Part shown: piece by piece, positions 6,483 to 27,545 of the stretch
How the letters are laid out: every line of letters begins with the position of its first letter
Position numbering within the stretch: position 1 is the first letter of the stretch
Virus record (IMG/VR): IMGVR_UViG_3300021408_000050
Location: 1-27,545 of that record
Direction: 5' to 3' (one strand)
Source of the DNA: a virus
Lineage: Duplodnaviria > Caudoviricetes
DNA length: 27,545 nucleotides
Notes under the pieces: model-generated
Seen by the model: the letters and a program-made list of their open reading frames with translations, nothing else
Database searches by the model: none
What the model was told of the DNA's origin: nothing
Position numbers and translations under genes: made by a program

Positions 6483-6501
6483 GAAGAAAACGGAGCGCAT
6501 C

Positions 6502-7209
6502 ATGAACAACACTCGTGAAAACTTTCTTGAGAACTCTTTCGGAAAGAAGGAAACTTCTGGAACTTCTGGATGGTCTCACCCCTACCCGCGAGGAAATTTC
6601 TCTCCGTTCTGGTACGCGGATGGGGATGATGACGGAACGGACATCGACGGAGACGACGACGATGGGGACCAGGATGATGACGATGATGACTCGGATGGGG
6701 GAAAGGATGACGACGGAACAGACGACAAGTTCACCCCTCCTTCTGAGGTTGAATGGAAGAAGGTACAGCGGAAGCTGAAGCGTGCAAATACTCAGGCACA
6801 AAATCTGCGTACTGAACTTGACAGTAAGGAAAAGTCTGGAAAGGAAGTAGACGCAGATACAGAAAAGAAGTTCCGCGATGAAGGACGTAGTGAAGCAGAA
6901 AAGGTATGGAAGCCACGGTTTGTTAAGCAGGCTGCAAAGGCTGCATTCTCGCAGGCAGGGGCCAAGAGCGTGGACCGGCTGATCCGCATGCTGGACCTTG
7001 AAGAAATTGACGTTGATGAGGACGGAGACATCGACGGATTGGATGAACAAATCAGGGATCTGAAGAAGGAAGTTCCTGAACTCTTTGGCCCCAAGGTTGC
7101 TCGCAATGTTGATGCGGGAGACAAGACGAAAAATGGTGGGGGCGGGGGAGGAAAGAAGAGTGACTCTGCCACTGCTGAAGCGCTCCGCCGACTCGGTATC
7201 AGTAGTTGA
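6502..7209 (+). CDS. Capsid scaffolding protein
   Basis: Asp-rich N-terminal tract, coiled-coil middle, 'GLDEQI..LK...PELF' motif; immediately before capsid gene. Confidence 0.85.
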   Translation: MNNTRENFLENSFGKKETSGTSGWSHPYPRGNFSPFWYADGDDDGTDIDGDDDDGDQDDDDDDSDGGKDDDGTDDKFTPPSEVEWKKVQRKLKRANTQAQNLRTELDSKEKSGKEVDADTEKKFRDEGRSEAEKVWKPRFVKQAAKAAFSQAGAKSVDRLIRMLDLEEIDVDEDGDIDGLDEQIRDLKKEVPELFGPKVARNVDAGDKTKNGGGGGGKKSDSATAEALRRLGISS

Positions 7210-7238
7210 GTTATAGCGACCTGTTCGGAACTTGGTCC

Positions 7239-7266
7239 TTGCAGAAGTAGCGGGTATCGGTACTAT
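7239..7266 (+). promoter_or_regulatory. Candidate sigma70/HrdB-type promoter for the capsid gene
   Basis: TTGCAG-N16-TACTAT in a 175-nt intergenic gap. Confidence 0.4.
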
Positions 7267-7384
7267 GACAATAAGCGGTGTTCGGTACCCGCACTCTTCT
7301 CGTGATATCCGGATGGGTCCGAGAGACAGATCAACAAGAAGTATTCTCGAAAGACTTTTCGTTCTCGATGAGGAGGGTAATCCC

Positions 7385-8344
7385 ATGGCTCGTAACACCA
7401 TGGAAGCGTGGATCCCGGAAGAGTGGGGCGGGAAGGTTGTCTCAAAGGTTCAGCAATCTTCCGCAGTGGAGAAGCTGGCCCGTCCGGAACCGATGGCTAC
7501 TGATGTAAAGAACATTCCTCGTGACGCCGGTGTGGACACTGAGTCGGTTTCCAAGGGTGCTGCGTATGGTGAAGACACTTCCACGAACGATGTAGTCACA
7601 CTCACTGCGCGGAAGCTGGGCAAGGCGATTCGTCTTGCTGAGGAAGACCTCCAGGACACCAAGAATGTTGCGAACGTTCTGGACAACAAAAAGACTTCGT
7701 GGGCCACGTCTTACGCCAAGTTCCTGGACAACGCAACGCTTGGTGTTTCTGCGGCGGAGAATGGAACCACCATTCCCTTCACGTCGCTATACCGGGCGCT
7801 CAACACCACGAACGCAGCGACTGGATACACGGCTGATGACAATGTCGTTGTCACTGTCACGGGAGACACTTTCCTGGTGACGTACGACAAGCTCTCTGCG
7901 GCGTTCGGTCTGTACGAGGCGGGTGATTATTTCGATGACGAAAACACTGTTGTCATCGCTCACCCTTATTTCAAGACTGCTTTCCGTGGAATCAAGGACA
8001 CGACCGGCCAGCCTGTTTTTGTGCAGGGTCTCGCCGGAACTCCTGACAGTCTCTTCGGTGCTCCTGTTTCCTGGACGAATGGAGCGAAGGTTACGGCCAC
8101 TGCAACTTCTTCCCCGTCCGGTGCGGGTGGCGCTTCTGGTGTCGCAGGAAACCCGCTTCTTTTTGTAGGCAACAAGGATTACATCGTTCTTGGAATTCGT
8201 TCCGGTCCGGAATCCATGGTTGCTCCCGCTGATTCTGGTGTCGGTTTCCTGACTGACGAGACCATTATCAAGATGCGTGCTCGTCGTGGATTCGGTGTGG
8301 CACACGAGAAGGCTTGGGCGGTTCTGGAGAAGGTTGCTGCCTGA
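7385..8344 (+). CDS. Major capsid protein (HK97 fold)
   Basis: ATG at 7385 with GAGGAGG RBS; WIPEEW, IKDTTGQPVF and 'RARRGF' motifs; position after scaffold. Confidence 0.93.
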   Translation: MARNTMEAWIPEEWGGKVVSKVQQSSAVEKLARPEPMATDVKNIPRDAGVDTESVSKGAAYGEDTSTNDVVTLTARKLGKAIRLAEEDLQDTKNVANVLDNKKTSWATSYAKFLDNATLGVSAAENGTTIPFTSLYRALNTTNAATGYTADDNVVVTVTGDTFLVTYDKLSAAFGLYEAGDYFDDENTVVIAHPYFKTAFRGIKDTTGQPVFVQGLAGTPDSLFGAPVSWTNGAKVTATATSSPSGAGGASGVAGNPLLFVGNKDYIVLGIRSGPESMVAPADSGVGFLTDETIIKMRARRGFGVAHEKAWAVLEKVAA

Positions 8345-8382
8345 TCCAGAGCAGTACACTGGAAGTGGTGTTCACACATCAT

Positions 8383-8422
8383 GAGGGGAGGGGCGGCCCA
8401 AGTGGTCGTCCCTTCTTTCGTT
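8383..8422 (+). terminator. Hairpin terminator/attenuator after capsid gene
   Basis: 16-bp stem GAGGGGAGGGGCGGCC / GGTCGTCCCTTCTTTC with G-U pairs on the + strand. Confidence 0.65.
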
Positions 8423-8436
8423 CGGGAGGAAAAGAA

Positions 8437-8922
8437 ATGACTGAACCCAAGAAGCGGACAGTGAAACGAACAGCATCGAAGGAAACTTCTGAGGACATGA
8501 TTGTTACTACGGATCCTCTGCCTGAAAAGGAAACCGCAGAGCAGTCTCAGTTTCCTTCTCTCCGTGGTCTCCAGAATCTCGAAGTTGAGAAGCGCGGGGC
8601 AGACAACGACGGATCAGAAGACGGACGCTGGAGGAAGACCTACGTTCTTCTCGGGGATCTGGAATCTCTGGAAGACGAAGAGAATGAAGTTCACAGGAAG
8701 AACAGGATTGACGTTCTTCAGCAGGCCATCATGAACGGTCTGCATCCGCAGGAGGAAGCAAGTTTTGACGGGGCAGAAATTCATGAGGATGGTGTGAGTG
8801 TGAATCTCCATTATTCTGTGAATGTCATTCCGTCGATTGTGGATGAGGATCCAGAATCCGCTGTGACTCCGGCTGACGTTCTGGAGAAGGAAGAGAACGA
8901 GCCCGCCTCTGCGTCTGCCTGA
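8437..8922 (+). CDS. Acidic hypothetical protein of the head module
   Basis: ATG at 8437 after GGGAGG; 161 aa. Confidence 0.75.
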   Translation: MTEPKKRTVKRTASKETSEDMIVTTDPLPEKETAEQSQFPSLRGLQNLEVEKRGADNDGSEDGRWRKTYVLLGDLESLEDEENEVHRKNRIDVLQQAIMNGLHPQEEASFDGAEIHEDGVSVNLHYSVNVIPSIVDEDPESAVTPADVLEKEENEPASASA

Positions 8923-8939
8923 CTGCTGTAGGGCCGCTC

Positions 8940-8998
8940 AGGGCCACAGGGTTCCCGAGGTACCTACGAGGTGTCTTAGGCGCTCTGTGGCCCTTTTG
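8940..8998 (+). terminator. Long hairpin terminator
   Basis: AGGGCCACAG...CTGTGGCCCT outer stem with an inner stem, followed by a T run. Confidence 0.6.
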
Positions 8999-9024
8999 TG
9001 TACTCAGAGAAAGAGGTAATAAAA

Positions 9025-10977
9025 ATGACTGCCACTGGATATACAAGTGGTGACCCCAACAAGGTAGATGTTTCCAACGAAACTTCTCCGGTCGGGTTCG
9101 GTATGGCAGCATCCGCAAGCTACAAGATTTCTGTAGGGGTCGGGACAGATATTCCTTCTGTCTATTCCCTGAACTCAACCGGTGGTGGAAATCTCAACTC
9201 TCCTCATTTCCGGGCGGACTCAGCCGCTGCCTCTTCTCTCCTCGTAACGTCGAGGGTCACCGGAGATTCTTCTTCCCGATTCGCTGCGACAATCAGCGGA
9301 GATCTTTCTTGGGGTGGAGGAAGTGGGTCGCGGGATGTAAATCTCAAGCGAGAAGCTGCGGACATTCTTCGGACCGATGACAGGTTCGTGATCGGTAGTG
9401 CATACGGGGCAGCTACTTACGCAGCTCTGCCGAAGGGAATCACAAACCGCAGTGAGACTGCCGGTCTTATTGTGGGAAGTTCATATTCTGGTGGAGATGA
9501 TGACGGGACAGGAACTGACTCCACAGGACGTATCAACCTGTACGCCTACCAGCGTGCGAACGTAGGAAGTTTCGGAGAGACCATCAGGAATTTTCTGATG
9601 CGGTCTGATGCAAAAGCCATGACAGTTTGGTACGGCCCAGAAGATGGGTTGAAGAAATCAAACTACAACGCAACAACTCGTGATCCGGAAAGTGGTTCCA
9701 CCTGGAAGCCGTGGACGTGGACAGGTTCACACTTTGAGGCGAACAATCATGCAAGTGTTCACGGTCACTGGGAAGTGGAAGTTCCAGATTCTACCGGTGC
9801 ACTTCAGGGACGCTTGGAAATTCCGTTCATCGATCAGTCCAAGTTGGGTGGACTCGGCGGGACGATTGATGACACCACCATCGGTGTGGACTGGACGAAC
9901 ATCCGGACCAACCTTGCAGACTTTTCTGTCCGTGCTCAGAACATCACGAGTGGAGATTTCACCGGGCAGAATACTGCACTAAGGGTCGGGGGAAATAACG
10001 CTGTCAACAAGGATATTGTTCTGGCGATTTCCTCGGACATGCAGACTGCTGGCCGACGGTGGATTATCCGAGGAAACATCGATACGGAAGCCGGAAGTAA
10101 TGCAGGAACAAACTTCCAGATTTCTCGTTGTGCGGATGATGGGTCAATTATTGGAACGCCATTCTTCATTCAGCGTTCTGATGGACAGATCACGAACGGT
10201 GCTGCGTCGGCAAAGGGTTCTCGTTTTGCTGCGGTGTGGGCTACGTCTGCAATCCATGGATTCTCTGCTCAGCCGTCCGCAACGATCGGTTCTGCTGCGG
10301 CATTCGATGCACAGATGTCCGCCACGACAGAACGTGTTTTCCAGTCGACTGTCACCGGAGATGCGAACCGTCGTCATGTAATTTACACAGATGGAAAGTA
10401 TGAGTGGGGAGATGGAACCGCAACGCGAGATGTAAATATTTACCGTTCTGCTGCTGGTGTTCTGAAGACAGATAACTCCTTCATTATTGGAGCGTCCCTG
10501 TCTGTCACGACTGCGATCAATGGTGGAAGTTCTTCAAGTGGAAACCTCACTCTGAATTCCACTACGCACGCCACGAAGGGAAAGATTTTTCTTGGTGCAA
10601 ACTCTGCATACGACGAAGTAAATTCTCGTCTTGGTGTAGGCACCACTTCCCCTTCCATGAACATTGATTCACAGAGGGCGGTGGCTGGTAACTCTGCATA
10701 CGGTGCTCGTGTAATCGGGGATGCCGGTGCGCGGTTCGTCATCAATGCTGATGGAGGAATGGTGTGGGGTTCTGGTGCCGGTTCTACAGACGTAAGCCTC
10801 TTCCGTTCTGCTGCGGACAAGTTGAAGACTGATGACATGTTCATCGCTGCTCTGGGAATCGGGGTAGGAAATTCTGCTGCTGCAACTACGCCGGGAACGG
10901 TAGCCCGAAAGATTCAGGTATTCGATGCGGCTGGTGCTTCTCTCGGCTTCATCCCGGTGTACGACGCAATTTCGTAA
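9025..10977 (+). CDS. Virion fibre/appendage protein with three internal repeats
   Basis: G/S/T/A-rich 650 aa; three repeats ending 'DV.L.R.AA..LKTDD'; GAGG RBS. Confidence 0.7.
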   Translation: MTATGYTSGDPNKVDVSNETSPVGFGMAASASYKISVGVGTDIPSVYSLNSTGGGNLNSPHFRADSAAASSLLVTSRVTGDSSSRFAATISGDLSWGGGSGSRDVNLKREAADILRTDDRFVIGSAYGAATYAALPKGITNRSETAGLIVGSSYSGGDDDGTGTDSTGRINLYAYQRANVGSFGETIRNFLMRSDAKAMTVWYGPEDGLKKSNYNATTRDPESGSTWKPWTWTGSHFEANNHASVHGHWEVEVPDSTGALQGRLEIPFIDQSKLGGLGGTIDDTTIGVDWTNIRTNLADFSVRAQNITSGDFTGQNTALRVGGNNAVNKDIVLAISSDMQTAGRRWIIRGNIDTEAGSNAGTNFQISRCADDGSIIGTPFFIQRSDGQITNGAASAKGSRFAAVWATSAIHGFSAQPSATIGSAAAFDAQMSATTERVFQSTVTGDANRRHVIYTDGKYEWGDGTATRDVNIYRSAAGVLKTDNSFIIGASLSVTTAINGGSSSSGNLTLNSTTHATKGKIFLGANSAYDEVNSRLGVGTTSPSMNIDSQRAVAGNSAYGARVIGDAGARFVINADGGMVWGSGAGSTDVSLFRSAADKLKTDDMFIAALGIGVGNSAAATTPGTVARKIQVFDAAGASLGFIPVYDAIS

Positions 10978-10988
10978 AGGGGAAAATC

Positions 10989-11357
10989 ATGGTTGCTGTA
11001 CGAACCACGATGCGACCTTTTGAGACCATCGAGGTAACAGAAACTGAGTTCACAGATCTGGAAATTCAAGGTCTGATCTACACAGACTGGAATGTTCTGT
11101 GGGTTAATTTCTACATGTACGTAGCCGGTCCACTGGCAACAGTTACCGGAGTACAAATCAGGATCCAAGATTCTGAAGATGTATATGTAATTTCCACAAC
11201 CAGTACAGGAGTTCTTAACGAGGACATCGGAACTTATTTTTACCGATGGCTCGAAGAAGATCAGCCTGGACCTGGTGATTACACAGTGACATGGACAGCG
11301 ACTGACGGACAGGGAAATCCTGTGACTGCCGTCGAGACTGTCACGATCGAAGAATAG
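10989..11357 (+). CDS. Putative virion decoration protein (N-terminal peptide plus Ig-like domain)
   Basis: C-terminal beta-rich domain 'G.Y...W...GDYTVTWTATDG'; N-terminus homologous to 13554..13742. Confidence 0.7.
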   Translation: MVAVRTTMRPFETIEVTETEFTDLEIQGLIYTDWNVLWVNFYMYVAGPLATVTGVQIRIQDSEDVYVISTTSTGVLNEDIGTYFYRWLEEDQPGPGDYTVTWTATDGQGNPVTAVETVTIEE

Positions 11358-11364
11358 GAGTGAA

Positions 11365-12129
11365 GTGGTGAGTACATTTCTTCAGGGAGACGACGGAACT
11401 TTTACCGCTCAGTTCTACGAGTACGCGGGAGGACCGGCAACAAATCTCACTGGCGTAACCGTAGAAATTACAAAGGTGGGAGAAGTTGTTCCTGCTGTTC
11501 CTGCCACAGCATCGGGAGTAACGAACCCGGCAACAGGTTTCTACACGTTCGTATGGGCCGTTCCGCTAGGGCAGGACACCGGAGACTACACAATCGTCTG
11601 GGAGGGCACAGACGGACAGTCAGAGATTATTCAGGCTAGTGAAGTCTTCACTGTAGGCGCTGCTGTTTCTGGAACGTGGGCGACAGTAGCTGATGTTCTG
11701 GAAATCACAGGCGAGACTGTCACCTCTGCAAAACTTCGTCAGGCACAATATGTCATTGACATGAAGTCTGGCCGTAGTTACGAAATTCACGACATGCTCG
11801 TTGCAAATAGTCGCCGAAGGGATCTGCATTATCTGAAGCTGGCAACGGCGTATCAGGCAGCGTGGATGAAATCTCAGCCTGATATGTTCGGGCGTATGAA
11901 TCTCACAAACGTGAATGCAGATTCTTCTTCTGCAACATTCGGTGTAGATGCCATGTCGCTTGGACCCCTGGCACGGGGAGCACTGAAACGGGTTTCTTGG
12001 CAGGGCACTCGTTCTTTGCGGGTGAAGAAAGATCCTGCATCTGTCATCCCGTACATGAGCGGCCAGAGGATTCCTCCTGCCGGTTCCCCCATCTATGACC
12101 AGCCCTATGACGGATGGAGCCAGATGTGA
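11365..12129 (+). CDS. Head-to-tail adaptor with N-terminal Ig-like domain
   Basis: C-terminal part begins 'WATVADVLEITG', with 'LKLATAYQAAWM' typical of actinophage adaptors; GGAG RBS. Confidence 0.75.
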   Translation: MVSTFLQGDDGTFTAQFYEYAGGPATNLTGVTVEITKVGEVVPAVPATASGVTNPATGFYTFVWAVPLGQDTGDYTIVWEGTDGQSEIIQASEVFTVGAAVSGTWATVADVLEITGETVTSAKLRQAQYVIDMKSGRSYEIHDMLVANSRRRDLHYLKLATAYQAAWMKSQPDMFGRMNLTNVNADSSSATFGVDAMSLGPLARGALKRVSWQGTRSLRVKKDPASVIPYMSGQRIPPAGSPIYDQPYDGWSQM

Positions 12130-12455
12130 GAGCCATCGCTAACACGACGATTTCTATTCTCGGCGGGACAGCAGAAGATGAGTTCGGAGAACAGACAGAT
12201 TCAGGAACCGTTCTATCTTCGGAAATTCCCGCTGCTGTGACCGAACAGACCAGGCAGATGTCTACTCAGGAAAACCCCACGCCACACGTGGTGAGGTTTA
12301 CGGTGTGCCGGGTAGGTTCAGACACGCAGGTAGAAGAAACAAATATCGTGCTTGACGAAGGTACAGGAAACAAGTACACCATCCAGGGAAAGTCTCAGAC
12401 CGGAGGATTCGGAATGAAGAATGATCTGAGGCTGGACCTCCGGCGCATCACGTGA
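12126..12455 (+). CDS. Head-to-tail stopper / head closure protein
   Basis: GTGA coupling; 109-aa beta-rich protein; 'DEFGE' early motif; synteny. Confidence 0.7.
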   Translation: MRAIANTTISILGGTAEDEFGEQTDSGTVLSSEIPAAVTEQTRQMSTQENPTPHVVRFTVCRVGSDTQVEETNIVLDEGTGNKYTIQGKSQTGGFGMKNDLRLDLRRIT

Positions 12456-12554
12456 CAACCGGGGAAACTCGGTGCACACTGATTCCTGACGGCCCCCTAA
12501 GCGGGAAAACTGCACGGGTTGTCAACCGACCACCATCCGAAAAGGAGGGCGGCC
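12453..12554 (+). ncRNA. Candidate multi-stem cis-regulatory RNA element
   Basis: TGACAACC/GGTTGTCA closing stem, GAAA tetraloop hairpin, GTGCA/TGCAC and TTCCTG/CGGGAA stems, SD-occluding hairpin. Confidence 0.4.
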
Positions 12555-12842
12555 ATGGCAGACTATGAATTCACCATGAGCAGCGGAGCCGACCAACATA
12601 TTAAACAAGCGACAGAAGAATTCCTGAACATGATCGGTGGAGAAATTCTTTCCGACATGCAGCGTGCTGTTCCGGTGGACAGCGGCGACCTGAAGGATTC
12701 TCTGATCGCAGAAGTTTCGAACCAGGAACTTCGAGTCGGTTCCAAGGATGTCGATTATTCTGTCGATGTTGAAATGGGAACTTCACGCTCTCCTGCGCAG
12801 CCCTACATGAGGCCATCACTTTTCCGCAGGAGGACACCGTGA
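12555..12842 (+). CDS. HK97 gp10-like neck protein
   Basis: 'PVDSGDLKDS', 'Y...VEMGTS...AQPYMRP' signature; AGGAGG RBS. Confidence 0.9.
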   Translation: MADYEFTMSSGADQHIKQATEEFLNMIGGEILSDMQRAVPVDSGDLKDSLIAEVSNQELRVGSKDVDYSVDVEMGTSRSPAQPYMRPSLFRRRTP

Positions 12843-13303
12843 CTACGACGCTGCGTCCCACCACAGAACTTGTTGCCGTCGCCTGGCTTCAGTCTCTTTT
12901 TTCTGATCCGATGGTGGCAACGACACTTCCTAAGCCTGGAGCTGATGGAAGTATTTCTTGGCAGTCCACGGGATTTGTGGTTCCTACTGTCGTGGGTGGA
13001 TCTCCGGATCTTTACATCCCGACGAGGAATCCTGTTATCGGCGTGGACACCTGGGCAGCGAAACTTAATTCCCAGAAAGTTCCGTGGGATCTGGCCAACA
13101 ACATTGCTGAAGAAATCTGGGCGAGCTTTAGCGTCAAGGAAAACTTCAACAGTGAACTCACCATCACAAAGGGAGCAGTCACCTATCCCAGCGTGAAGGT
13201 TCTTGAGGCGTGGTCGCACACAGAAATCCGAAGGATCTCCAATGATCCTGCGGGATATGCCCACTACAGTTTCGACATGGGTTTCTCCTGGGTGGAAATC
13301 TGA
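12839..13303 (+). CDS. Tail terminator protein
   Basis: Follows gp10-like gene, precedes major tail; 154 aa; GTGA coupling. Confidence 0.75.
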   Translation: MTTTLRPTTELVAVAWLQSLFSDPMVATTLPKPGADGSISWQSTGFVVPTVVGGSPDLYIPTRNPVIGVDTWAAKLNSQKVPWDLANNIAEEIWASFSVKENFNSELTITKGAVTYPSVKVLEAWSHTEIRRISNDPAGYAHYSFDMGFSWVEI

Positions 13304-13566
13304 TGCCCGAGAAGCGATGGGCCATGCGAGGAAATATCTCAGGGGAACTTCTTTCTCTCGGTGGAAAAATTATTGTGCACGATAGCCGAGAGGAACTTCT
13401 CTGGGGGATGGATCCTAGCGGAGTTACCATCATGGAATGTCCGGTAAGTATCCGGAATGAAGAAACCTTGGAACTGATTTTCCATCCGCAAGTGGTCAAC
13501 CAGCCGTGGGCTAAGAAAAGGCTTGCGGAACGTCTGAAGAAGGAGAACATCTCATGCGAAAGGTGA
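13303..13566 (+). CDS. Hypothetical protein
   Basis: TGATG coupling; 87 aa. Confidence 0.65.
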   Translation: MPEKRWAMRGNISGELLSLGGKIIVHDSREELLWGMDPSGVTIMECPVSIRNEETLELIFHPQVVNQPWAKKRLAERLKKENISCER

Positions 13567-13742
13567 AGACTACACTTCGCCCTGACGAGACGATCGATGT
13601 AGGAGAGGCAGAGTTTCTGGATCTGGATCGTCAGGGACTCATCTCCGAAGAGGTCTCCGATGGTGAAGAAGAGGCACCGGCCAAGGAGAGTGGAAAGAAC
13701 ATCTCCGCACCCTCCAAGGTTCAGGAAAAGAAGGAGGCGTAA
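13554..13742 (+). CDS. Small protein with conserved TT.RP.E.I.V...EF.DL..QGLI peptide
   Basis: AAGGAG RBS; homologous to the N-terminus of 10989..11357. Confidence 0.75.
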   Translation: MRKVKTTLRPDETIDVGEAEFLDLDRQGLISEEVSDGEEEAPAKESGKNISAPSKVQEKKEA

Positions 13743-13745
13743 GTC

Positions 13746-14306: not shown

Positions 14307-14329
14307 TCCCACAAGAAAAAAAAAGAAGC

Positions 14330-14380
14330 GGGCGGGTGGATCTGTTCGCACATTCCATGTAGCGGTCCACCCGTTCTCTT
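14330..14380 (+). terminator. Hairpin after major tail gene
   Basis: GGGCGGGTGGATC / GGTCCACCCGTTC stem; A run upstream, TCTT downstream. Confidence 0.55.
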
Positions 14381-14418
14381 CGGTCAACAAAAACTTCTAG
14401 AAAAGTTAAGAGCGCATC

Positions 14419-14766
14419 ATGACGAACATCGAAGACATCAAGCCGGTAGAACTCAAGACTGACACGACTCCTGACGCAAAGAAGCGGGTAACTATTTTCA
14501 CGATTGCTGATGCGGAGGGGAAGAAGACTGAGTACACCATTCCTGCTAAGCCCCGTCCGAACATCGCACTGAAGTACATGTGGACTCTGAAAACCACAGG
14601 AAACGGTGACACTGCCGCTGCTCAACTTCTGGAAGACATGTTGGGAGAAGAGGGCTACATGGCTCTCATGGCTTGGGACGATCTGGAAGTTGAACAGTTC
14701 AAGAATATTCTGGACATCTGCAAGGATGTTTCTATGGGTGGGATGGAAGAGGCAATGGGAAACTGA
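14419..14766 (+). CDS. Tail assembly chaperone (G-like)
   Basis: Between major tail and tape measure; ends in slippery G GGA AAC. Confidence 0.88.
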   Translation: MTNIEDIKPVELKTDTTPDAKKRVTIFTIADAEGKKTEYTIPAKPRPNIALKYMWTLKTTGNGDTAAAQLLEDMLGEEGYMALMAWDDLEVEQFKNILDICKDVSMGGMEEAMGN

Positions 14767-15146
14767 TTGCGCGGGCCGAGCAAATTGTATGGGTCCTCGA
14801 TCACCTCGCAGATCTGGAAGCTGATTTCCTGGTCTTCTACCGGATCGAGGACCCATTTTCTTTGGACGGTCCGCGCTTCTTCCGACTGGCTTGGAGAGCA
14901 TCGGCGTATCAGGGTTCGATGCGTGCCGTGGCTGAGGCTCAGGAGAACAGACGACAGGGATATGGACAGCGAGAGCCAGGCAGTTACAACAGGCCCTCAG
15001 AAGCCCGTACAGAGCCTCAGCAAGAAGTTACAAAACCAGCTATAGAAAAAACTCAACAGCAGTGGTTGCGAGAAAACTACAATCCTAACGCCACAGATTT
15101 CAACGGAGAAACCTTCGACTGGAATCCACTGATGCAACAGATCTGA
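14419..15146 (+). CDS. Tail assembly chaperone, -1 frameshift product (GT-like)
   Basis: GGGAAAC at 14757-14763; -1 frame is open (KLIARAEQIVWVLDHLADLEADF...FFRLAWR...) to the stop at 15146. Confidence 0.85.
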
Positions 15147-15167
15147 AAATTTAAGGAGGTGTGATTC

Positions 15168-17474: not shown

Positions 17475-17481
17475 GTAAATA

Positions 17482-21700: not shown

Positions 21701-21926
21701 TCCGGTATTTTTCCTGTCCCCTCGTTCCTTCGATTGGAAGGCGGGAGTAGGAACTTACGTCCCAAGGATGGATGGCCTGATTGCTGAGGAAGTCCAAGAG
21801 TTTATTTCTTCGGCAGTAGTGACAAGCGAAGACGGAACAGTGGAAGGTTTGAACAACAATGTTCTTGTAGGAAACATCATCGCAGGATTGAAATATCTGA
21901 AGGATCGTCTCGATAGCATGCAGTGA
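18702..21926 (+). CDS. Minor tail protein: hub + FN3 domains + fibre with C-terminal S74-type chaperone
   Basis: FN3 pattern (VSW...YEIQ...L.PATSYDFKVR); 'I.DAAITNAKI..LSASKITAGTI' stalk; 'SSRRFKENI...GLIAEEV' autocleaving chaperone motif. Confidence 0.85.
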   Translation: MSVVEVKQSLGSWNLKLSDKTPRRLLDALTYFGHVVFIPGKVNPVQYGDNVLAQARYVGVYRGRSSKNQFELKGCGLSFWLGDEDNKGDILQTPHTFLSETFANTIRDLLPPHGAITEGTLHSVAGTYNGQHQWQTSREAITYVTDTFSAEWKVNNTGTLDAGAIADLFVTTPVALISRKMPGKDPHILGLPGQMGSERDVEDYSTRVVLLAEGDGASIYTGSADAPSVPFKDLHGNTMWMTRMVSESGTVADNADARAAMQLGRFSGTRNSVTLSTDAYDVKGDFVVGDYVWVFDPDNEFVDTSNQISYRGELLSPLKIRVVEMTWPIQAGYTVAFRDTDGNWFDLTDYYVPEEGSTSITVGEFSRSLTSAGSEPTTPRVNYDTSTPAAPTLNTPFSTSSYINGRGENKARVVVSWSQPLNVDGSTITDGDHYEIQFKTSFGATWGTRYQSFDSTTLTVEELSPATSYDFKVRCVDQNANIGAFSATSTIVASVDVTAPSTPAAATVAGNPIQIQVLHELGKASGGTFNLENDLDHLDVFVGISAGFTPGAGNFVGSISATSSNLDTGSAVIANFPIPDDTTRYVKVIAVDRSGNQSAASSSASVSALLIDTINIADAAITNAKIDSLSASKITAGTITGEEIIIAGGTSGILRSDNFDDTGTGAGWSINGDGEAVITSLRTGPTGSARVAIGDSTGAPSGIPIQSMVWLYTGDGSENTGGYVYGAVEPASGTTRRAGLTLRSPRFTSSLNGSSFVQIQSQPADASSSPTITIQTSDGTAGTVNFNTARVKMLDSYLDLDDNGRLYFSETNGDYISHTGNGFEMRDNSALTGSSLSVGKVYLEDRRIHFQGVANSLINVDYIDFDETDNRFDFVADSDQNFSKVHAGAAIVGSFGNADSAYFGHDQNFTSGAWALRQTDSNGKTNLNAPSGGIVAISVQDDDLVTFEDGGSTTIMTMNNPLPTGTGTPVVSNASQLYRDTSSRRFKENIQPIEYTGDVPPVFFLSPRSFDWKAGVGTYVPRMDGLIAEEVQEFISSAVVTSEDGTVEGLNNNVLVGNIIAGLKYLKDRLDSMQ

Positions 21927-21944
21927 GAAAAAAAATGTAGAAAG

Positions 21945-21998
21945 AAAAAAAAGAGGCCCCGTCATCCCGGAGAAAATTTCCAGGAGCGGGGCTCTCTT
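21945..21998. terminator. Bidirectional terminator between convergent operons
   Basis: AAGAGGCCCCG...CGGGGCTCTCTT hairpin preceded by A runs; lies between convergent genes. Confidence 0.75.
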
Positions 21999-22008
21999 CG
22001 TGTGCAAG

Positions 22009-22416
22009 CTACAGAGTGCTGCATGCCTTCTGCATGGCAGCTACCCGCTTGCTCCAGTCAGCCACTACTTCACCGTCTCGCAGATCTTCTGAACCACGAG
22101 CCAGGTTCATAGCTGCGTTGTAGATCTTTTTATTCTTGGCGAACATTGCTCCAGGATTCTTTTCAGAACCTGAGAGAAGTTCCGTAGTGATCTCAGTGGA
22201 CTTCAGTTCCTTCTCAGACTTTCCCGAGAAGAACTTACAGGACCACTTTTCTGCACCTGGAATTATTGTCCTCTGCTGAACGCTGGGCTTGCTGGAAACC
22301 TTGGGAGCTTCTGGCTTTTCTTCTGACCCAGAACTTCCACAACCAGAAATTACAGTGAGGGCTATGGTGGCAGCTAACGCCACTATGAATTTCTTATCCA
22401 TGCTCTTGTTCATCAT
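22009..22416 (-). CDS. Lipoprotein
   Basis: KK + hydrophobic core + ISG-C lipobox, then S/P/K-rich linker; two further Cys. Confidence 0.8.
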   Translation of the reverse strand: MMNKSMDKKFIVALAATIALTVISGCGSSGSEEKPEAPKVSSKPSVQQRTIIPGAEKWSCKFFSGKSEKELKSTEITTELLSGSEKNPGAMFAKNKKIYNAAMNLARGSEDLRDGEVVADWSKRVAAMQKACSTL

Positions 22417-22769
22417 ACGTGCTTTCCCTTTGCATCATGCTTGTGCGGCTTGCCGTCGTGGTCAGAAAACTTGGGCTTGTCTTCCTGGTTGTTGTCCGGA
22501 GTTTCCACACCAGGACCATGCGGGGTGATGGCATCCGCATAAGTGGAAGATTCATCTTCTGCATCAGTCTTTACCTGGAACTCCTGAAGCTGAGAACGAA
22601 GCCCGCCGTTCTCTTCCACCAGACCAACAATCTCTTCCTGCGCCTGCTCCAGTGCAGCGTTCAGGATGGCATTCTGAGTCTCTACCTGTCCTACTCGTGC
22701 GGAGATCTCATTGACCTTTGCTTCGAGATGCTTAGCAACTCGCATCGGGTCTACAGACATTTCTACCAT
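22413..22769 (-). CDS. Coiled-coil hypothetical protein
   Basis: Heptad pattern over about residues 10-65; ATGA coupling to the lipoprotein gene. Confidence 0.75.
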   Translation of the reverse strand: MVEMSVDPMRVAKHLEAKVNEISARVGQVETQNAILNAALEQAQEEIVGLVEENGGLRSQLQEFQVKTDAEDESSTYADAITPHGPGVETPDNNQEDKPKFSDHDGKPHKHDAKGKHV

Positions 22770-22838
22770 GGTGACTTCACTTTCTCTAGAAATAAAACTT
22801 GCTACTGAGACAGCGCCAGATAAGTCTTGAAGTTTTCC

Positions 22839-23522
22839 TTATCCGGTACATCCTGGAGTATGTTTTCCATTGAATCTGCCGCAGGTTCCACAGGGGGCAG
22901 ACTTCACTTCTTCAGGAGCTTCCGGAATTTCTTCCTCTGTCTCAGCTTCTACAAGGGAAGAATCGAAATCTTCTGTGGGAGAAACTTCCATGTCTTCCGA
23001 AGAAGAGTCCTCATCCTCCCACGAGTCGGGCTCAACAATCTCCTCAGCCTGCTCAGTGGCCTCCTCCTGGGCTTCCTGCGGTTCCTCTTCGTGGTTCTGC
23101 ACCAGGGTCAGTACAGCCCCGTCAGAAACGTTCTCAGGAGTTTCTGCGACTACGTCAGTAACGGGAGAAGACTTCTTACTCTTGACGATCCGATACTTCT
23201 TCTTGGGAGGCATGTCAGGAGTCTCACTCTCTTCGGATTTCCAGAACTGGAAAACGATGATGGTCTTCCACCGGTTGTTCTTACCGCGACGAGTCTTGAG
23301 CTTCAATCCAGTCTCCGCACCCTTGGCACGAAGGATGGCAATGAAGGAAGCAGGAGCACAAGTAAAATCTGTGCCTTCCTTAACTTCCCATGCTTCAAGA
23401 TTTGTCCATCGCTTCCATGGATACTTCGAGTTCGGATGTTTGATGTTCTTTCCAGCTTCCCGGAAGTTACGAACCCTCCTGGCCACTGTCTTCCTCCTTC
23501 CTTCCAAAGATGTTTTCCGCAT
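22839..23522 (-). CDS. Hypothetical protein: basic N-domain, acidic linker, C-terminal CxxC-H-C
   Basis: 227 aa; ends CGTCGRFNGKHTPGC. Confidence 0.75.
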   Translation of the reverse strand: MRKTSLEGRRKTVARRVRNFREAGKNIKHPNSKYPWKRWTNLEAWEVKEGTDFTCAPASFIAILRAKGAETGLKLKTRRGKNNRWKTIIVFQFWKSEESETPDMPPKKKYRIVKSKKSSPVTDVVAETPENVSDGAVLTLVQNHEEEPQEAQEEATEQAEEIVEPDSWEDEDSSSEDMEVSPTEDFDSSLVEAETEEEIPEAPEEVKSAPCGTCGRFNGKHTPGCTG

Positions 23523-23985
23523 CGGTGATCAGAAGATTTTCCACTGGAGGAAGAAGCCATACCTCTAGCCTCAAAGACTCTGTGAGCTGAGGGTTATCAC
23601 TCAAGAACTTTTCTAGGAGGATCTTGTTTTCTGAGTAGAAAATCAGTTCGTTCTGTGAAAGGAACTGACGCTTCTTCTGAGAGAACCAGCCCCACCTGTC
23701 GAGATCGGAATACTCTGGCACTTCACGAGACTCAAGATTTTCCCCAGACAGATCCTTGCTGCCGACTAGGGGAGAACCACCATGAGTGACCTTGTACCAG
23801 CCTTGTCCGTCCTCGTCATCCAGAAGAGAAACGTACTTACCATACTTGACGAGAACGACCTTCCTACGCTGCCCCACCAGACCCCTTGCCCAGTACTGCG
23901 GGAACTCAAGAGTGTCTGTCACAGTACAGATGACGCGCATAGCGAAGCAGTTTTCACCGTTCCACTGCGTACGAACTTTGTTCAT
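23467..23985 (-). CDS. Hypothetical protein
   Basis: 172 aa; GGAG RBS; protein-like core 'LDDEDGQGWYKVTHGGSP'. Confidence 0.7.
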   Translation of the reverse strand: MNKVRTQWNGENCFAMRVICTVTDTLEFPQYWARGLVGQRRKVVLVKYGKYVSLLDDEDGQGWYKVTHGGSPLVGSKDLSGENLESREVPEYSDLDRWGWFSQKKRQFLSQNELIFYSENKILLEKFLSDNPQLTESLRLEVWLLPPVENLLITDAENIFGRKEEDSGQEGS

Positions 23986-24206
23986 GTTTTCTCTCCAGTT
24001 TCTTCGGTTAGCCAGCTTGCAGGTTGTAGAGAAAGCTTCTTGGTCTCTGGATTTCTTTCCCAGTAATAAGGCTTTCTGAAAAACCAGATGACTTCTAGTT
24101 TCTGTGGATGAAGTTGTTTTTCGTATGCGTTATCGATGATGTTAATTCCATCATCAAGATTGTTAGGACCTGAAGTAATCGTAATCTCCCCGAGGTACAG
24201 CCACAA
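23982..24206 (-). CDS. Hypothetical protein (start uncertain)
   Basis: Fills the gap; its stop is coupled by ATGA to the next gene. Confidence 0.45.
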   Translation of the reverse strand: MWLYLGEITITSGPNNLDDGINIIDNAYEKQLHPQKLEVIWFFRKPYYWERNPETKKLSLQPASWLTEETGEKT

Positions 24207-24378
24207 TGATGTGATGTGGATTTACTAGCACAGGATGTTTGAAGGTACTGTCATCTGCTACTAGCAGCAAGTCTTGGTCAGAAGAATTTGAGATGATCTT
24301 TCCTTCAACCATGCGACCTGAAGTCAGAAAGAAAATATATTCTTCCCCGACAGAAAAGTTCTTCTGAATAGTAGCCAT
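24163..24378 (-). CDS. Small Sm/Hfq-like fold protein (putative)
   Basis: TGATG-coupled start with GGGGAG RBS; 'YIFFLTSGRMVEGKI...LLLV...LVNPHHIIVAVP' parallels Sm1/Sm2 motifs. Confidence 0.55.
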   Translation of the reverse strand: MATIQKNFSVGEEYIFFLTSGRMVEGKIISNSSDQDLLLVADDSTFKHPVLVNPHHIIVAVPRGDYDYFRS

Positions 24379-24701
24379 CAGTTCTCCCCGCCATAATCGT
24401 GAGTGATAGTTTCTCCAAGCTTTCCGATCCACTTTTCTGCTGAAATAGCGAACTCTACTTCTTGCTTGAAGTATCCGGCCATCTCACCCATCACTTTTGC
24501 GGCCGAAGAAATCTGCTCCAGAACTTCTACTGGCAGGTCTCGCAGTAGGTCCATCGTCTTGGCAGACTCCCCACGGTATGCCCATTCAAAGGCACGCACA
24601 GTGCGGGAGACAGAATCAGAATCCATGATTACTTCATGGTTCTCTCGAAACTTCTGCTGAACTTCTGCCCACGAAACTTCTTCGGTGCCAGGTTCAATCA
24701 T
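24378..24701 (-). CDS. Hypothetical helical protein
   Basis: 107 aa; ATGA coupling; AAGGA RBS. Confidence 0.75.
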   Translation of the reverse strand: MIEPGTEEVSWAEVQQKFRENHEVIMDSDSVSRTVRAFEWAYRGESAKTMDLLRDLPVEVLEQISSAAKVMGEMAGYFKQEVEFAISAEKWIGKLGETITHDYGGEN

Positions 24702-24898
24702 CGTCGGTTGTCCTTACTCCAGTAGAAAGCGGCGAAGGCAGTAACACAGAAGACTAGCAGGAAGACCGGATGAAAACCTGAATCCTGCGGTACGAAGAAG
24801 ATAGCTACACCCGAACAGGTGCAGAGTCCCACGGTGACCAGCGGAAAGGTTGCTATGGCCCTTCTCTTCCACCGGACGATTCTGCGGTGAAGCTCCAT
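24698..24898 (-). CDS. Small two-TM membrane protein
   Basis: Basic N-terminus and two hydrophobic segments; TGATG coupling. Confidence 0.7.
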   Translation of the reverse strand: MELHRRIVRWKRRAIATFPLVTVGLCTCSGVAIFFVPQDSGFHPVFLLVFCVTAFAAFYWSKDNRR

Positions 24899-25083
24899 CA
24901 GAAGAACCTCTGTACCTCATACGTGACGAGCCAGAAGATTGCTCCGGAAATCCAGCCTGCTGCCCAGTTGTTGAATTTCTTCGAGCAGTAGGTTCGTGCT
25001 CGTGAGTGTGAAATTTTCACCTTCAAAAACATCTTGCGAGGAGAAGAAAACTTCTTAACTTCTGCTGCTTCCTGTACGGCCAT
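24898..25083 (-). CDS. Small protein with C-terminal TM segment
   Basis: ATG at 25083 after AAGGGA; hydrophobic WAAGWISGAIFWLV. Confidence 0.6.
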   Translation of the reverse strand: MAVQEAAEVKKFSSPRKMFLKVKISHSRARTYCSKKFNNWAAGWISGAIFWLVTYEVQRFF

Positions 25084-25139
25084 TATTTCTTGTCCCTTCC
25101 TAGCTACCTTCGTTCTGTTCCTTCTTGTCTCCAAGGTAG

Positions 25140-25192
25140 AGGGTGTATACGCACCCTGTCCAGCACTAGACTGGGCCGAGAGATATACACCC
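25140..25192. promoter_or_regulatory. Divergent control region with inverted TATACACCC sites
   Basis: AGGGTG-TATACG-CACCCT quasi-palindrome (25140-25157) and GATATACACCC (25182-25192) between divergent genes. Confidence 0.6.
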
Positions 25193-25217
25193 TGATCAGA
25201 CAGGCAGGAGAGGGGCT

Positions 25218-25409
25218 GTGCCGACCAAGGGAACGCCCAACCATCCGGTGAGGTACCCCAACGACAGATGGGAGGAGTTCGGCAGGATCGCAGGAAAGCG
25301 GGGAGAAGTACGTTCAGTGATTCTGCAAACTTTTATGGACCGCTACATCGAGACAGGAGGTGAGCCATACATCATCAAGAAAATTATCCGTCGTAGAAAG
25401 AAGAAGTGA
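25218..25409 (+). CDS. Ribbon-helix-helix DNA-binding protein
   Basis: 'TPNHPVRYPNDRWEEF...RSVILQTFMDRYI' strand-helix-helix pattern; AGGAG RBS. Confidence 0.7.
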   Translation: MPTKGTPNHPVRYPNDRWEEFGRIAGKRGEVRSVILQTFMDRYIETGGEPYIIKKIIRRRKKK

Positions 25410-25420
25410 AAGTTTCTACT

Positions 25421-25475
25421 ACTCCCTGGTTCTTGAGGAAGAAAGTTTTCTTCAGGAGCTGGGGAGTTTTTTTTT
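25421..25475 (+). terminator. Intrinsic terminator after RHH gene
   Basis: About 20-bp stem ACTCCC...GGGAGT followed by a T run. Confidence 0.8.
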
Positions 25476-25487
25476 GTGTCTATGCTC

Positions 25488-25613
25488 CGGACACCTCATG
25501 TCCGCAAGTAAGTTCCTTAAGAATATTCTGAGTGGACAGTATGTGTCCGGAGGTCCTTCGTTAGAAACAACCTCCGGACGTCTGGTGTCCGCCTAACCGG
25601 ACAGATCTGTCCG
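25488..25613. repeat. Array 1: four CGGAC(A/G)-N4-5-TGTCCG palindromes
   Basis: Units at 25488-25504, 25533-25549, 25575-25591, 25598-25613. Confidence 0.85.
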
Positions 25614-25630
25614 CAAAAACTTGCATAACC

Positions 25631-25802
25631 GCAGGTCAGAACGCCGCGCCCTTTATTCCCTTCTTAGTATTAACCGAGAGAAAGAGATAAAGAAGAAACA
25701 CGTGTGCGTGTGTACATGTAAGAACAAGTTCTAGACTAGTAAATAAAGTTAGAGAAAGTTATAAAGACATACTTTTACTAAGATAGATACCTTCTGACCT
25801 GC
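25631..25802. other. AT-rich tract bounded by 11-bp inverted repeat (candidate origin unwinding element)
   Basis: GCAGGTCAGAA (25631-25641) and TTCTGACCTGC (25792-25802) flank a markedly AT-rich non-coding stretch. Confidence 0.6.
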
Positions 25803-25807
25803 ACTAG

Positions 25808-25836
25808 TTGACCTATGCACCACGCTGAGGCATACT
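25808..25836 (+). promoter_or_regulatory. Candidate sigma70/HrdB-type promoter
   Basis: TTGACC-N17-CATACT, 30 nt upstream of the ATG at 25866. Confidence 0.55.
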
Positions 25837-25865
25837 GGAACCACGAACGATCCAGGAGGTTCAAA

Positions 25866-26165
25866 ATGCCGTACAAGCCGAATCATGGCTACCGAGGATG
25901 CCGGGAACGAATTGTTGAAGTGCTGGCTGACGGAGAAGGAAAAACTCTGAAGGACATCTCTTCGGCGCTACCGGAATATGTCTACGGTTACATTTCCAAG
26001 ATCATGAAAAGTCTTGTTGATGATGGAAAAGTTAACAGGATTTATCTCGGGGTGTACCAGCTTCCTCCGAAGCCGAAGAAGCGAAAGATCCGTATCATCC
26101 GAAAGAAGAAGACTTCAGATGTTGTTCACATGGATGAGTTTCGTTCTCGTCCTAAGAAGAAGTGA
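25866..26165 (+). CDS. Winged helix-turn-helix DNA-binding protein
   Basis: AGGAGG RBS; 'RIVEVLADG...TLKDISSAL...ISKIMKSLVDDGKVNRIYLGVYQL'. Confidence 0.8.
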   Translation: MPYKPNHGYRGCRERIVEVLADGEGKTLKDISSALPEYVYGYISKIMKSLVDDGKVNRIYLGVYQLPPKPKKRKIRIIRKKKTSDVVHMDEFRSRPKKK

Positions 26166-26194
26166 AGACTTAACTTCTAGGGAGGTGCCGTGCG

Positions 26195-27193
26195 ATGAAC
26201 AGCAATTCAAGAGTCCGCACAGAACGCGGTGCCGGGAACCGTGTGGTTGGGTATTCCTCGACGAAGCATGCATACTCAGACAAAATTATCTCTGACAAAA
26301 GTCTTCCGATGCGGTGCCGGGTGGAACACGCAGTCCGTCGTTACGTGAAAGAAAACCGGCACTGCCCTCTCTTCGGCAAGAAAAGTCTTTACCAACTGCT
26401 CGGGGCTACGACTCCAGCAGAGCAGCGGGCAGTGCGTCGAGCGATCGATGAGCTTAAGAAAGAAAACTTTCTTGCTACAGAATCTAGTGCCCGTTGTCTC
26501 GTTGCGATGTCTGGTGCCTGTGATTCTCATCTTGATGTAGAGCCGTGCTTCCACGACAATCCGTCTGAGGTCAGGAAGGCGGAGCAGGAATACGCACGCG
26601 AGAACAAGCTTGCGCCTGCCTCTGAGAAGCTGTCTGCCTCCAGGACACTCAGGCGTACCAGGACGCATCCTCAGGCTGTTACAGAGCTTCCTGTGGCTTC
26701 TGCTGCTCTGGCAGAAAACAAGCCTGTAATGGTTCATGAAAAAATCTCTGAGGCTCCGGACATTATCCGTCCGGAAGCTAAGCCTGTCCGTCGAGTGAAA
26801 CGTAAGAAGCCTGCGGACATCTCACGTCCGGAAGTACGTGCGGACAATAAGTGTCCGGACCCTGAGAAGAAAAAGAAGTTCCGTATCGTTAGGAAGGCTG
26901 CGGACGTTATCAGTCCGGAGGTAGTAGCACGCAGGGAATCTTTCAGGGCCCTGACAACGGAAGAAAAGTTTGCTTCTCTGTCAGCAAGTATTAATTCTTC
27001 ACTTCCTCCAGGCATGAGTAAGACTCGCGAAATAGAGCGGGAAGAGAAAAAGAGGCAGCTAACGAAAGACAGGCAGGAGTTTCTTCGGATCTACGACGAC
27101 ACCACGGCACAATGGATGGTCGGACACTGGGACGAACACCAGGTTCAAGAAGATTTTTACAACTGGAAGATCAAGAAAATGGGAGCTGCATAA
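26195..27193 (+). CDS. wHTH-containing protein, putative replication initiator
   Basis: GGGAGG RBS; 'KKSLYQLLG...RAVRRAIDELKKENFL' wHTH-like; carries internal palindrome array; next to candidate origin. Confidence 0.6.
   Translation: MNSNSRVRTERGAGNRVVGYSSTKHAYSDKIISDKSLPMRCRVEHAVRRYVKENRHCPLFGKKSLYQLLGATTPAEQRAVRRAIDELKKENFLATESSARCLVAMSGACDSHLDVEPCFHDNPSEVRKAEQEYARENKLAPASEKLSASRTLRRTRTHPQAVTELPVASAALAENKPVMVHEKISEAPDIIRPEAKPVRRVKRKKPADISRPEVRADNKCPDPEKKKKFRIVRKAADVISPEVVARRESFRALTTEEKFASLSASINSSLPPGMSKTREIEREEKKRQLTKDRQEFLRIYDDTTAQWMVGHWDEHQVQEDFYNWKIKKMGAA
26757..26917. repeat. Array 2: four CGGAC(A/G)-N5-(C/T/A)GTCCG palindromes inside the CDS
   Basis: Units at 26757-26773, 26814-26830, 26841-26857, 26901-26917. 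Confidence 0.85.
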
Positions 27194-27372
27194 TGCCAAA
27201 GCGAATCGTTCGTAAGAAGAAAGCTCAAGTTGATGATCGAAAAGTACACGCTATTTATGAGATCTTTCGCGGTGTCATGTGGGAAGCGATAAATGATACG
27301 TTCCCGGAAATTATTTCTGACCACAAGAAATTTACCGTAGAAGAAATCAAGCGGCTAATTATTGAATGTTAA
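27193..27372 (+). CDS. Small hypothetical protein, possibly truncated by a premature TAA (frame stays open to 27459)
   Basis: TAATG coupling, GGGAG RBS; readthrough completes a CxxH...CxxC motif. Confidence 0.6.
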   Translation: MPKRIVRKKKAQVDDRKVHAIYEIFRGVMWEAINDTFPEIISDHKKFTVEEIKRLIIEC

Positions 27373-27457
27373 GTTCACAACACTACAAATAAAAACTGTG
27401 CAGTGTGTGCACGGGCTGACTCTTTCAAAATCTCTATTGAGATTCTGTCGCAACAAT

Positions 27458-27519
27458 AAAAAAAAAGATGGTCCTCCTGATTCCCAGAGCGCATCAGCTA
27501 AGGAACCAGAAGGACCACC
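27458..27519 (-). terminator. Intrinsic terminator of a leftward transcript entering from beyond the window
   Basis: Hairpin 27467-27519 whose + strand C/A mismatches become G-U pairs on the - strand; followed by a 9-U run on the - strand. Confidence 0.75.
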
Positions 27520-27545
27520 ACTCACCGGGTGAACGGGAGTAGGGT

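Follow-up and report, generated by a model that had tools for sequence, protein, structure and literature searches.

A candidate hairpin-loop antisense RNA complementary to the scaffold and tail assembly chaperone start regions of an uncultured soil phage

How tailed phages adjust the amounts of scaffold and tail chaperone relative to structural subunits when all come from one long late message is poorly understood; the usual example is P22, whose scaffold is autoregulated. The genome segment of an uncultured soil phage considered here (27,545 nucleotides, the whole of which is referred to as the window) raises the question of whether one RNA could address both chaperones, as an earlier note on this DNA had claimed that the genes for the head scaffolding protein and the tail assembly chaperone (TAC) share a 13-nt start region whose complement is displayed by a minus-strand hairpin. 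On the sequence evidence described below, we regard it as probable that the loop of this hairpin acts as an antisense RNA blocking translation initiation of both chaperones. The relevant features are collected in Table 1. The TAC was identified by tblastn matches to the annotated TACs of KimJongPhill, Zuko, Wyvern, Isperia, and OscarSo, and beyond its slippery site the -1 frame is open to 15146 (GT form).

Table 1. Coordinates of the genes, start-region tags and hairpin elements in the window.
Feature	Position	Strand	Description
Promoter-like repeat TATACACCC	6474..6482	+	20 nt before scaffold start
Target tag, scaffold	6493..6505	+	spans SD (GGAG) and start codon; pairs with apex over 6491-6502
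Head scaffolding protein gene	6502..7209	+	PHROG 194 (E 9e-13), PHROG 4708
Target tag, TAC	14410..14422	+	spans ribosome-binding region and start codon; pairs with apex over 14409-14419
TAC gene, tail assembly chaperone G	14419..14766	+	tblastn matches; slippery GGGAAAC at 14757-14763
71-aa protein	24163..24378	-	predicted Sm/Hfq-like fold
U9 tail	27458..27466	-	intrinsic-terminator anatomy, by sequence
Hairpin	27467..27519	-	19-bp stem, 15-nt apex (6-nt loop and weak 3-bp helix)
Seed UGAUGCGCUCU	27486..27496	-	first 6 nt predicted unpaired (0.92-1.0), next 3 paired (0.07-0.1)

The common start region could be confirmed: GAGCGCATCATGA occurs at both genes (ATG at 6502 and 14419), and a third site, AGAGCGCATCA, lies at the apex of the strong minus-strand hairpin. 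The exact 10-mer within these sites, GAGCGCATCA, has three copies in the window vs 0.04 expected, all in the same DNA orientation, and none of 100 shuffles reached three. When two mismatches are allowed there is no excess of copies (18 vs 25.4 expected), and the 10-mer is therefore not a dispersed family. Of 3000 column shuffles, 56 gave a word of at least 13 nt common to any two of the 33 start regions; part of the shared word is SD plus ATG. The promoter-like repeat TATACACCC, which may serve as a promoter, is present in four copies vs 0.05 expected in count. The spread over many non-structural starts seen with the SAS repeats of cluster K is absent, the two start-site copies both being in the structural operon. 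DNA contigs from three runs (two samples, of which one may be the source) carry the three sites without any variant, and those from the two runs of one sample both end at 27539. A shorter copy, GCGCATCA at 12443, which had been listed as a further member, is an 8-mer at chance level and was discarded; it falls in the final codons of the stopper gene, with the next start ∼100 nt away. Also rejected was GCGCTCTG in an arm of the 8940-8995 hairpin, which is base-paired and near chance by a rough estimate.

The proposal that the hairpin folds best on the minus strand and ends in a U run is borne out, with a predicted energy of -36.6 kcal/mol for 27519-27467 (z -7.1, 0/200 shuffles) vs -23.7 for the plus strand. 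Four G-U pairs favor the minus strand and, together with the U run, select the antisense strand. The predicted terminator (19-bp stem and U9) would provide the defined 3′ end of a trans-acting sRNA, and the hairpin is a candidate antisense RNA or the terminal part of an RNA transcribed leftward. Only 26 nt of contig lie upstream of it; no sigma-70-like site was found in this interval, no TATACACCC upstream of the hairpin within the contig and no overlap between the contig ends, and the 5′ end of the RNA probably lies off the contig. Rfam covariance models (4227 families, including C4, CI, and 6C) gave no match at gathering score.

The apex was found to be complementary to both initiation regions, as had been claimed, with 12 bp including one G-U at the scaffold start (-21.6 kcal/mol) and 11 Watson-Crick bp at the TAC start (-20.3 kcal/mol). 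These rank first and second among 34 starts, the next being -14.2, and the two genes rank 1 of 231 late-gene pairs; a few starts in these rankings are offset by 1-3 nt, inside the scored windows. Among the 24 strong hairpins this one comes first, and the post-capsid hairpin of the window itself offers just 4 nt of pairing with either start. When 13-mers were drawn at random, a complement of at least 10 nt in any of the 24 apexes turned up 135 times in 200000 draws (∼7e-4), which for the apex match alone largely removes the reservation in the earlier note that the third copy could be chance. The hairpin is encoded apart from its targets, on the opposite strand and 13-21 kb away, with a predicted exposed seed. 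Full pairing of 11-12 bp from a closed loop would be topologically strained, and no seed pairing was predicted by RNAcofold, which is unable to model closed-loop pairing.

These observations can be accommodated in a mechanism in which the hairpin forms the likely 3′ end of a phage RNA, transcribed leftward from a promoter or operon probably located past the contig end. In the scaffold and TAC mRNAs, the exposed loop would pair with the tags lying across the ribosome-binding site and start codon, beginning with 6-8 nt and growing to 11-12 bp upon opening of the weak 3-bp helix. As a result, translation of the two non-virion chaperones would fall jointly, and such repression might hold reusable chaperones under capsid and tail-tube levels or keep assembly off until late.

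Three distant actinophage groups (clades A, A′, and B) repeat the arrangement of a tag and a hairpin-apex complement with other letters, the scaffold and TAC tags being CCGCCTG, CGTCCC, and GGCATCCA, respectively. The late mRNA itself carries the mirror in these relatives; the window alone has it at a distance, on the other strand. Since each clade represents one lineage, loci within a clade are not independent. In clade A, which includes an Actinocrinis MAG prophage, the hairpin is directly behind the capsid gene and ranks first genome-wide in three of three whole genomes; its loop YCAGGCGG is kept while 6 of 11 stem pairs are changed on both sides. CCGCCTG is present at the scaffold start in 10/10 loci and before TAC in 7/8, at distances varying from -6 to -26 within windows just 68-70% identical, although one locus (L130) is without the TAC tag, another (L140) without an exact scaffold tag, and the scaffold tag doubles as common codons for Arg-Leu. 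In L041 the loop is altered to TTAGGCGG, and CCGCCTA is found before the tail-tube gene and the gene following it. In the sister clade A′, the loop is switched to CTGGG(G)ACGG and CGTCCC occurs in 4/4 scaffold and 3/3 TAC leaders, two of the scaffold matches being just 6 nt (p ∼0.25). A swap control gave 7.0-11 nt of pairing with a clade's own targets vs 3.7-5.7 nt with those of other clades.

Clade B consists of Streptomyces prophages in which GGCATCCA follows the start codon, in differing reading frames, at 24/25 scaffold and 23/23 TAC starts examined. Its complement, TGGATGCCA, is invariant in all 29 adaptor genes having the site, where it uses GAT, a codon that accounts for just 19 of the 602 Asp codons of the capsid; the adaptor site reads GAC in two loci without the tag. 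TGGATGCCA is at a hairpin apex in 7/8 folds. A genome-wide scan for strong hairpins gave no candidate in 7/7 clade B records, and the post-capsid loops of this clade pair instead with the start of the next gene.

No tag-and-mirror circuit was seen in seven other genomes or regions, among them the nearest whole genomes. KimJongPhill and G001, which are nearest in the capsid tree, have no hairpin of this kind (the best reach 6 and 5 nt); the Zuko, Wentworth, and Yara regions were likewise negative, and so were the post-capsid hairpins of six other loci (L001, L002, L015, L053, L029, and L056). The word shared in G001 is a genome-wide SD-like repeat found at ∼15 genes. Three Microbacterium phages (OscarSo, Wyvern, and Isperia) have a hairpin, with TTCGGGGG as its apex, that came first for CCCCCGA(A) of both leaders; the match was rejected as evidence since 107/496, 208/406, and 234/351 gene pairs, respectively, score equally well and the apex loop is an ordinary cUUCGg tetraloop. 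A further 48 sequence-pattern matches were taken as chance without one-by-one inspection. Scaffold, tail-tube, and TAC queries detected no close relatives in viral contigs, although one TAC relative (57% identity) is found on a 31,235-nt contig, and no real homolog of the 332-aa protein or of the Sm-fold protein was found. Searches of relatives gave no ortholog of the window hairpin, and there is consequently no covariation for the three sites of the window, seed-target covariation being at the motif level in clades A, A′, and B.

It is conceivable, though unlikely, that the pairing is real but promotes translation, or governs how the mRNA is processed or how stable it is, rather than blocking initiation: clade A′ tags are located 24-32 nt upstream of the start and off the SD, and in clade A the gene for the major tail protein, an abundant product, also carries a tag ∼38 nt upstream. 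However, the window duplex would cover the SD and the A of the AUG in both genes, that of clade B would lie over the start codon region, and in the window no strong inhibitory fold that pairing could open is present in either leader (z -0.8 for the scaffold region).

Slightly less likely is that the tag is a real cis signal and the hairpin merely the terminator of a leftward, off-contig operon, with an accidental loop match. Its anatomy is that of a classic terminator and is shared in the window by three further long hairpins that have U runs, it lies close to the contig end, and no ortholog was found; yet the frequency of apex matches in random draws, a complement that fills the apex up to the 3′ stem, and the same design in three relative clades all argue against an accident.

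We consider it improbable that the 10-mer is the site of a phage protein, either a DNA operator or the target of an RNA-binding repressor, for which the Sm-fold protein and the scaffold would be candidates, with the third copy an operator or sense decoy. The common DNA orientation of the three copies, the position of the scaffold copy 11 nt behind the promoter-like repeat, the ability of the plus strand to fold as well and the presence of an Sm-fold protein gene would all suit such a site, whereas degenerate extra copies are absent and in clades A and A′ the hairpin copy is reversed relative to the tags, the better-folding strand still being the complement in 12 of 14 cases. The orientation of tag and hairpin is constant only at the level of RNA pairing. 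Of the two forms of joint control put forward in the earlier note, an antisense RNA or an RNA-binding protein, the former gains from the statistics, the strand asymmetry and the independent sequences of relatives, and the latter is disfavored because the strand that folds or is transcribed shows, in every case, the complement and not a sense mimic. That all three copies are coincidental is very improbable, even for a match noticed after the fact while a great number of windows were scanned, and with a word that is partly SD plus ATG, given ∼0.02 for the shared word times ∼7e-4 for the apex and the targeting of the same gene pair in relatives.

Assistance of the antisense RNA by the Sm-like protein had also been suggested. 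An Sm/Hfq-like fold is predicted: a single-sequence model of the 71-aa protein (pLDDT 67) has Hfq as its top Foldseek matches (E 3.8e-3 or weaker, TM ∼0.59), and atlas matches include LSM12, Hfq, YolD, and RimP-like proteins (TM 0.67-0.75). There was no match to Pfam Hfq/LSM at E 0.05, and the stretch corresponding to the Sm2 motif of Hfq, YKHAI, reads VNPHHI. Nothing ties the protein to the circuit, and none of five circuit-bearing relative genomes gave a match to it, a null of limited weight.

More tentatively, a group of actinobacterial siphophages may possess a tag-and-mirror RNA circuit that jointly meters two recyclable chaperones, the mirror having been relocated (capsid 3′ UTR, inside the adaptor gene, or here a free opposite-strand sRNA locus) and the seed rewritten with both targets each time, here perhaps with a phage-borne Sm protein in a host lineage without Hfq. 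If true, a base-pairing RNA addressing exactly the head and tail chaperones would represent a new layer of assembly control, and a function would be offered for one class of actinophage start-associated repeats. The circuit is directly testable because clade B prophages are present in cultured Streptomyces strains. No paper on RNA pairing with scaffold and TAC starts was found in a literature search whose coverage excludes most subscription journals, and the seeds are absent from the searched part of the PMC10690425 supplements, of which files 1, 2, and 4 may contain these hairpins.

The phage antisense RNAs CI of P4 and C4 of P1 and P7 serve immunity control near their own locus, via transcription termination or anti-repressor expression, and C4 is a structured RNA with two complementary sites. 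CI is likewise a phage-made, structured antisense RNA with two complementary sites (PMC4825925). Unlike these, the window hairpin has virion-assembly chaperones as its targets, and no Rfam match. The SAS of cluster K mycobacteriophages is a 13-bp asymmetric repeat at the translation starts of many non-structural genes, for which the accessible portion of that work leaves undecided whether the partner is RNA or protein and describes no complementary hairpin (PMC3203893), whereas here two assembly genes and a mirror hairpin are involved.

Bacterial systems offer mechanistic parallels. In Staphylococcus aureus icaR, a 3′-UTR motif pairs with the SD of its own mRNA and blocks initiation, a model for the clade A scaffold-capsid mRNA, although icaR regulation concerns one gene in cis (PMC3868564) and differs from the distal, opposite-strand hairpin of the window. 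OppZ and CarZ of Vibrio cholerae are 3′-end RNAs that pair with start regions of their own operon and inhibit translation, a position that fits the clade A and A′ hairpins behind the capsid gene; they are bacterial, 3′-UTR-derived, autoregulatory, and RNase E-processed (PMC7398697), and the window hairpin, by contrast, lies outside its target operon and is not derived from its 3′ UTR. The actinobacterial 6C sRNA of Mycobacterium tuberculosis acts in trans through hairpin loops that pair with ribosome-binding sites and represses without Hfq or ProQ; it is chromosomal, with C-rich anti-SD loops and many targets (PMC6486639), whereas the phage tag is private and clade-specific, marking two or three phage genes.

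The 13-nt word (tag) that spans the start codons of the scaffold and tail assembly chaperone (TAC) genes, and its complement (mirror) at the apex of a hairpin, lie in the window where the earlier note had placed them, and its view that the hairpin folds best on the minus strand was borne out, the stem G-U pairs forming on that strand only. The apex complement UGAUGCGCUCU runs from the first base of the loop up to the 3′ stem. It pairs with the scaffold start over 12 bp, one of them G-U, and with the TAC start over 11 bp, the predicted duplex at both genes spanning the ribosome-binding region and the A of AUG. When 34 starts were compared, the scaffold came first (-21.6) and the TAC second (-20.3), ahead of the next start at -14.2, and the two form the top pair of 231 late-gene pairs for apex match. 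Sharing of 13 nt between start regions arose in 56 of 3000 shuffles (33 start regions), and a 10-nt apex match in 135 of 200000 random draws. A scan of all 20-nt windows returned one site better than both targets, a minus-strand coding site (-24.0 at 7190) that is not at a start. The mirror-hairpin feature itself is regarded as real.

Sequence features located in the window
Feature	Position	Strand	Description
Mirror hairpin	27519-27467	minus	19-bp stem with four G-U pairs, 15-nt apex, then U9
TATACACCC	1426, 6474, 25184	plus	upstream of terminase small subunit, upstream of scaffold, one of a divergent pair
TATACACCC	25149	minus	other member of the divergent pair
GGCGGGAGAGAAGTTTTCCT	331-350, 1051-1070		left end; two exact copies, shorter third copy at 1232
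Late-strand hairpin	8940-8995		~630 nt 3′ of capsid stop; GCGCTCTG (8980-8987) in paired arm
A9 run, then long hairpin	14316-14380		between tail tube and TAC; minus-strand terminator shape inside late operon
TAC slippery site GGGAAAC, then hairpin	14757-14876		108-nt hairpin (-63 kcal/mol), candidate frameshift stimulator
CGGACA-N-GTCCG repeats	26751-26921, 25482-25610		inside and upstream of a 332-aa orphan gene

The four copies of TATACACCC (0.05 expected) likely represent a phage promoter element, the A9 hairpin may stop antisense transcription, and the CGGACA-N-GTCCG repeats may be iterons of a replication origin embedded in an initiator gene.

The window is an entire contig of 27,545 nt from a siphophage akin to actinophages, its capsid protein sharing 53-54% identity with the capsid proteins of Streptomyces phages KimJongPhill and Zuko. 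GenBank matches were all Streptomyces or Microbacterium phages or satellites (19/19) and genome matches all Streptomyces or Actinocrinis (8/8), from which we infer an actinobacterial host. From terminase to tail the late genes point rightward; beyond them come genes of unknown function read leftward, a divergent region and a short group of rightward genes. Since no lysin was identified and the two contig ends do not overlap, the genome is probably incomplete at the right, where sequence upstream of the hairpin would lie. Contigs from two runs of one sample both stop at 27539, a point where the genome may physically end or the assembly may branch; positions 23270-23271 read AC in the window and CA in 3/3 runs, probably an assembly error.

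No close genome was found in the collections searched, and distant relatives (capsids 45-58% identical) were therefore asked for the same design, each clade weighing as a single lineage. In clade A, which includes an Actinocrinis MAG prophage, a hairpin lies directly 3′ of the capsid stop, with its late-strand loop YCAGGCGG conserved; its stem covaries at 6 of 11 pairs, reached in 0/500 shuffles, and in three whole genomes it ranks first of 154, 194 and 199 hairpins. The matching CCGCCTG lies 8-11 nt inside the scaffold gene (10/10 loci), 6-26 nt upstream of the TAC (7/8) and ∼38 nt upstream of the major tail gene in most loci reaching it. Only 1-7 among 12-20 starts per locus, as called heuristically with some TAC starts missed, carry a 7-nt match, the scaffold being included in 8/8. 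In the sister clade A′ the loop is CTGGG(G)ACGG, and CGTCCC occurs in scaffold (4/4) and TAC (3/3) leaders; in one locus (L204) the loop is longer by a G and each tag by a C, and two others (L206, L207) also have four Cs, yet a three-G loop. When loops were set against the targets of other clades, the mean match fell from 7-11 nt to 3.7-5.7 nt.

The scaffold ATGGGCATCC and TAC ATGGCATCC of clade B (Streptomyces prophages) have GGCATCCA in common, in different frames, at 24/25 scaffold and 23/23 TAC starts covered by sequence. Its complement lies inside the adaptor gene, ∼670 nt 3′ of the capsid stop, and is unchanged, with a rare GAT codon, in 29/29 loci having the site; two loci without tags read GAC. 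In 7/8 loci its fold is a 5-nt loop closed by a 3-bp helix, resembling the window apex, with which it has a GAUGC core in common. This element is a post hoc pick from a motif search once the tags were known, and a genome-wide strong-hairpin scan did not pick it up. The late-strand hairpin of the window at the corresponding position is possibly a vestige, near chance. Separately, the loop (NNGGCTC) of a post-capsid hairpin pairs with the next gene's start (GAGCC-RTG) in clade B (for example L014:2255-2330, L017:7977-8050, L024, L055) and in phage Wyvern (L058:9990-10080); the two co-vary, and likely form a pseudoknot over that start codon.

Neither KimJongPhill nor G001, the complete genomes closest in the capsid tree, shows such a mirror hairpin, and Zuko, Wentworth, Yara and clades D and E were negative within the regions examined. 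G001 (L138, L139) carries GAGAGGAC, a SAS-like start repeat, upstream of ∼15 genes on both strands. In another relative (L001:8021 and 14279), the 14-nt GAGAGGACACGTCA is common to scaffold and TAC and occurs nowhere else in the 15-kb fragment, which holds no mirror of it; a mirror may sit in the missing part. A Microbacterium phage case failed its control and was dropped.

A mirror at a distant site on the opposite strand is peculiar to the window, unlike all relatives. Across the four versions its DNA orientation differs, yet in each of them the tag's complement is what the better-folding or transcribed strand displays, a pattern that RNA-RNA pairing explains better than a DNA operator or a decoy would. 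The 71-aa protein that the earlier note called Sm-like is predicted to adopt an Sm fold, its best structural match being Hfq; having no Pfam match, no homologue found and no match in five circuit-carrying relative genomes, it is regarded as an optional extra. Scaffold and TAC each serve repeatedly and neither is part of the virion, so holding the two down during mass production of capsid and tube would be a coherent purpose.

The RNA loop of the window would pair over the Shine-Dalgarno sequence and start codon of both genes, so repression is the likely sign of the effect, as in the loop-mediated repression by 6C RNA, which does not require Hfq (PMC6486639). Loop-seed antisense RNAs are an already known kind; the literature searches returned no phage RNA aimed jointly at head and tail chaperones whose seed changes from clade to clade along with both of its targets. 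The late message of clades A, A′ and B would regulate itself by feedback, in the manner of OppZ and CarZ (PMC7398697). A separately made RNA in the window could set the timing as well.
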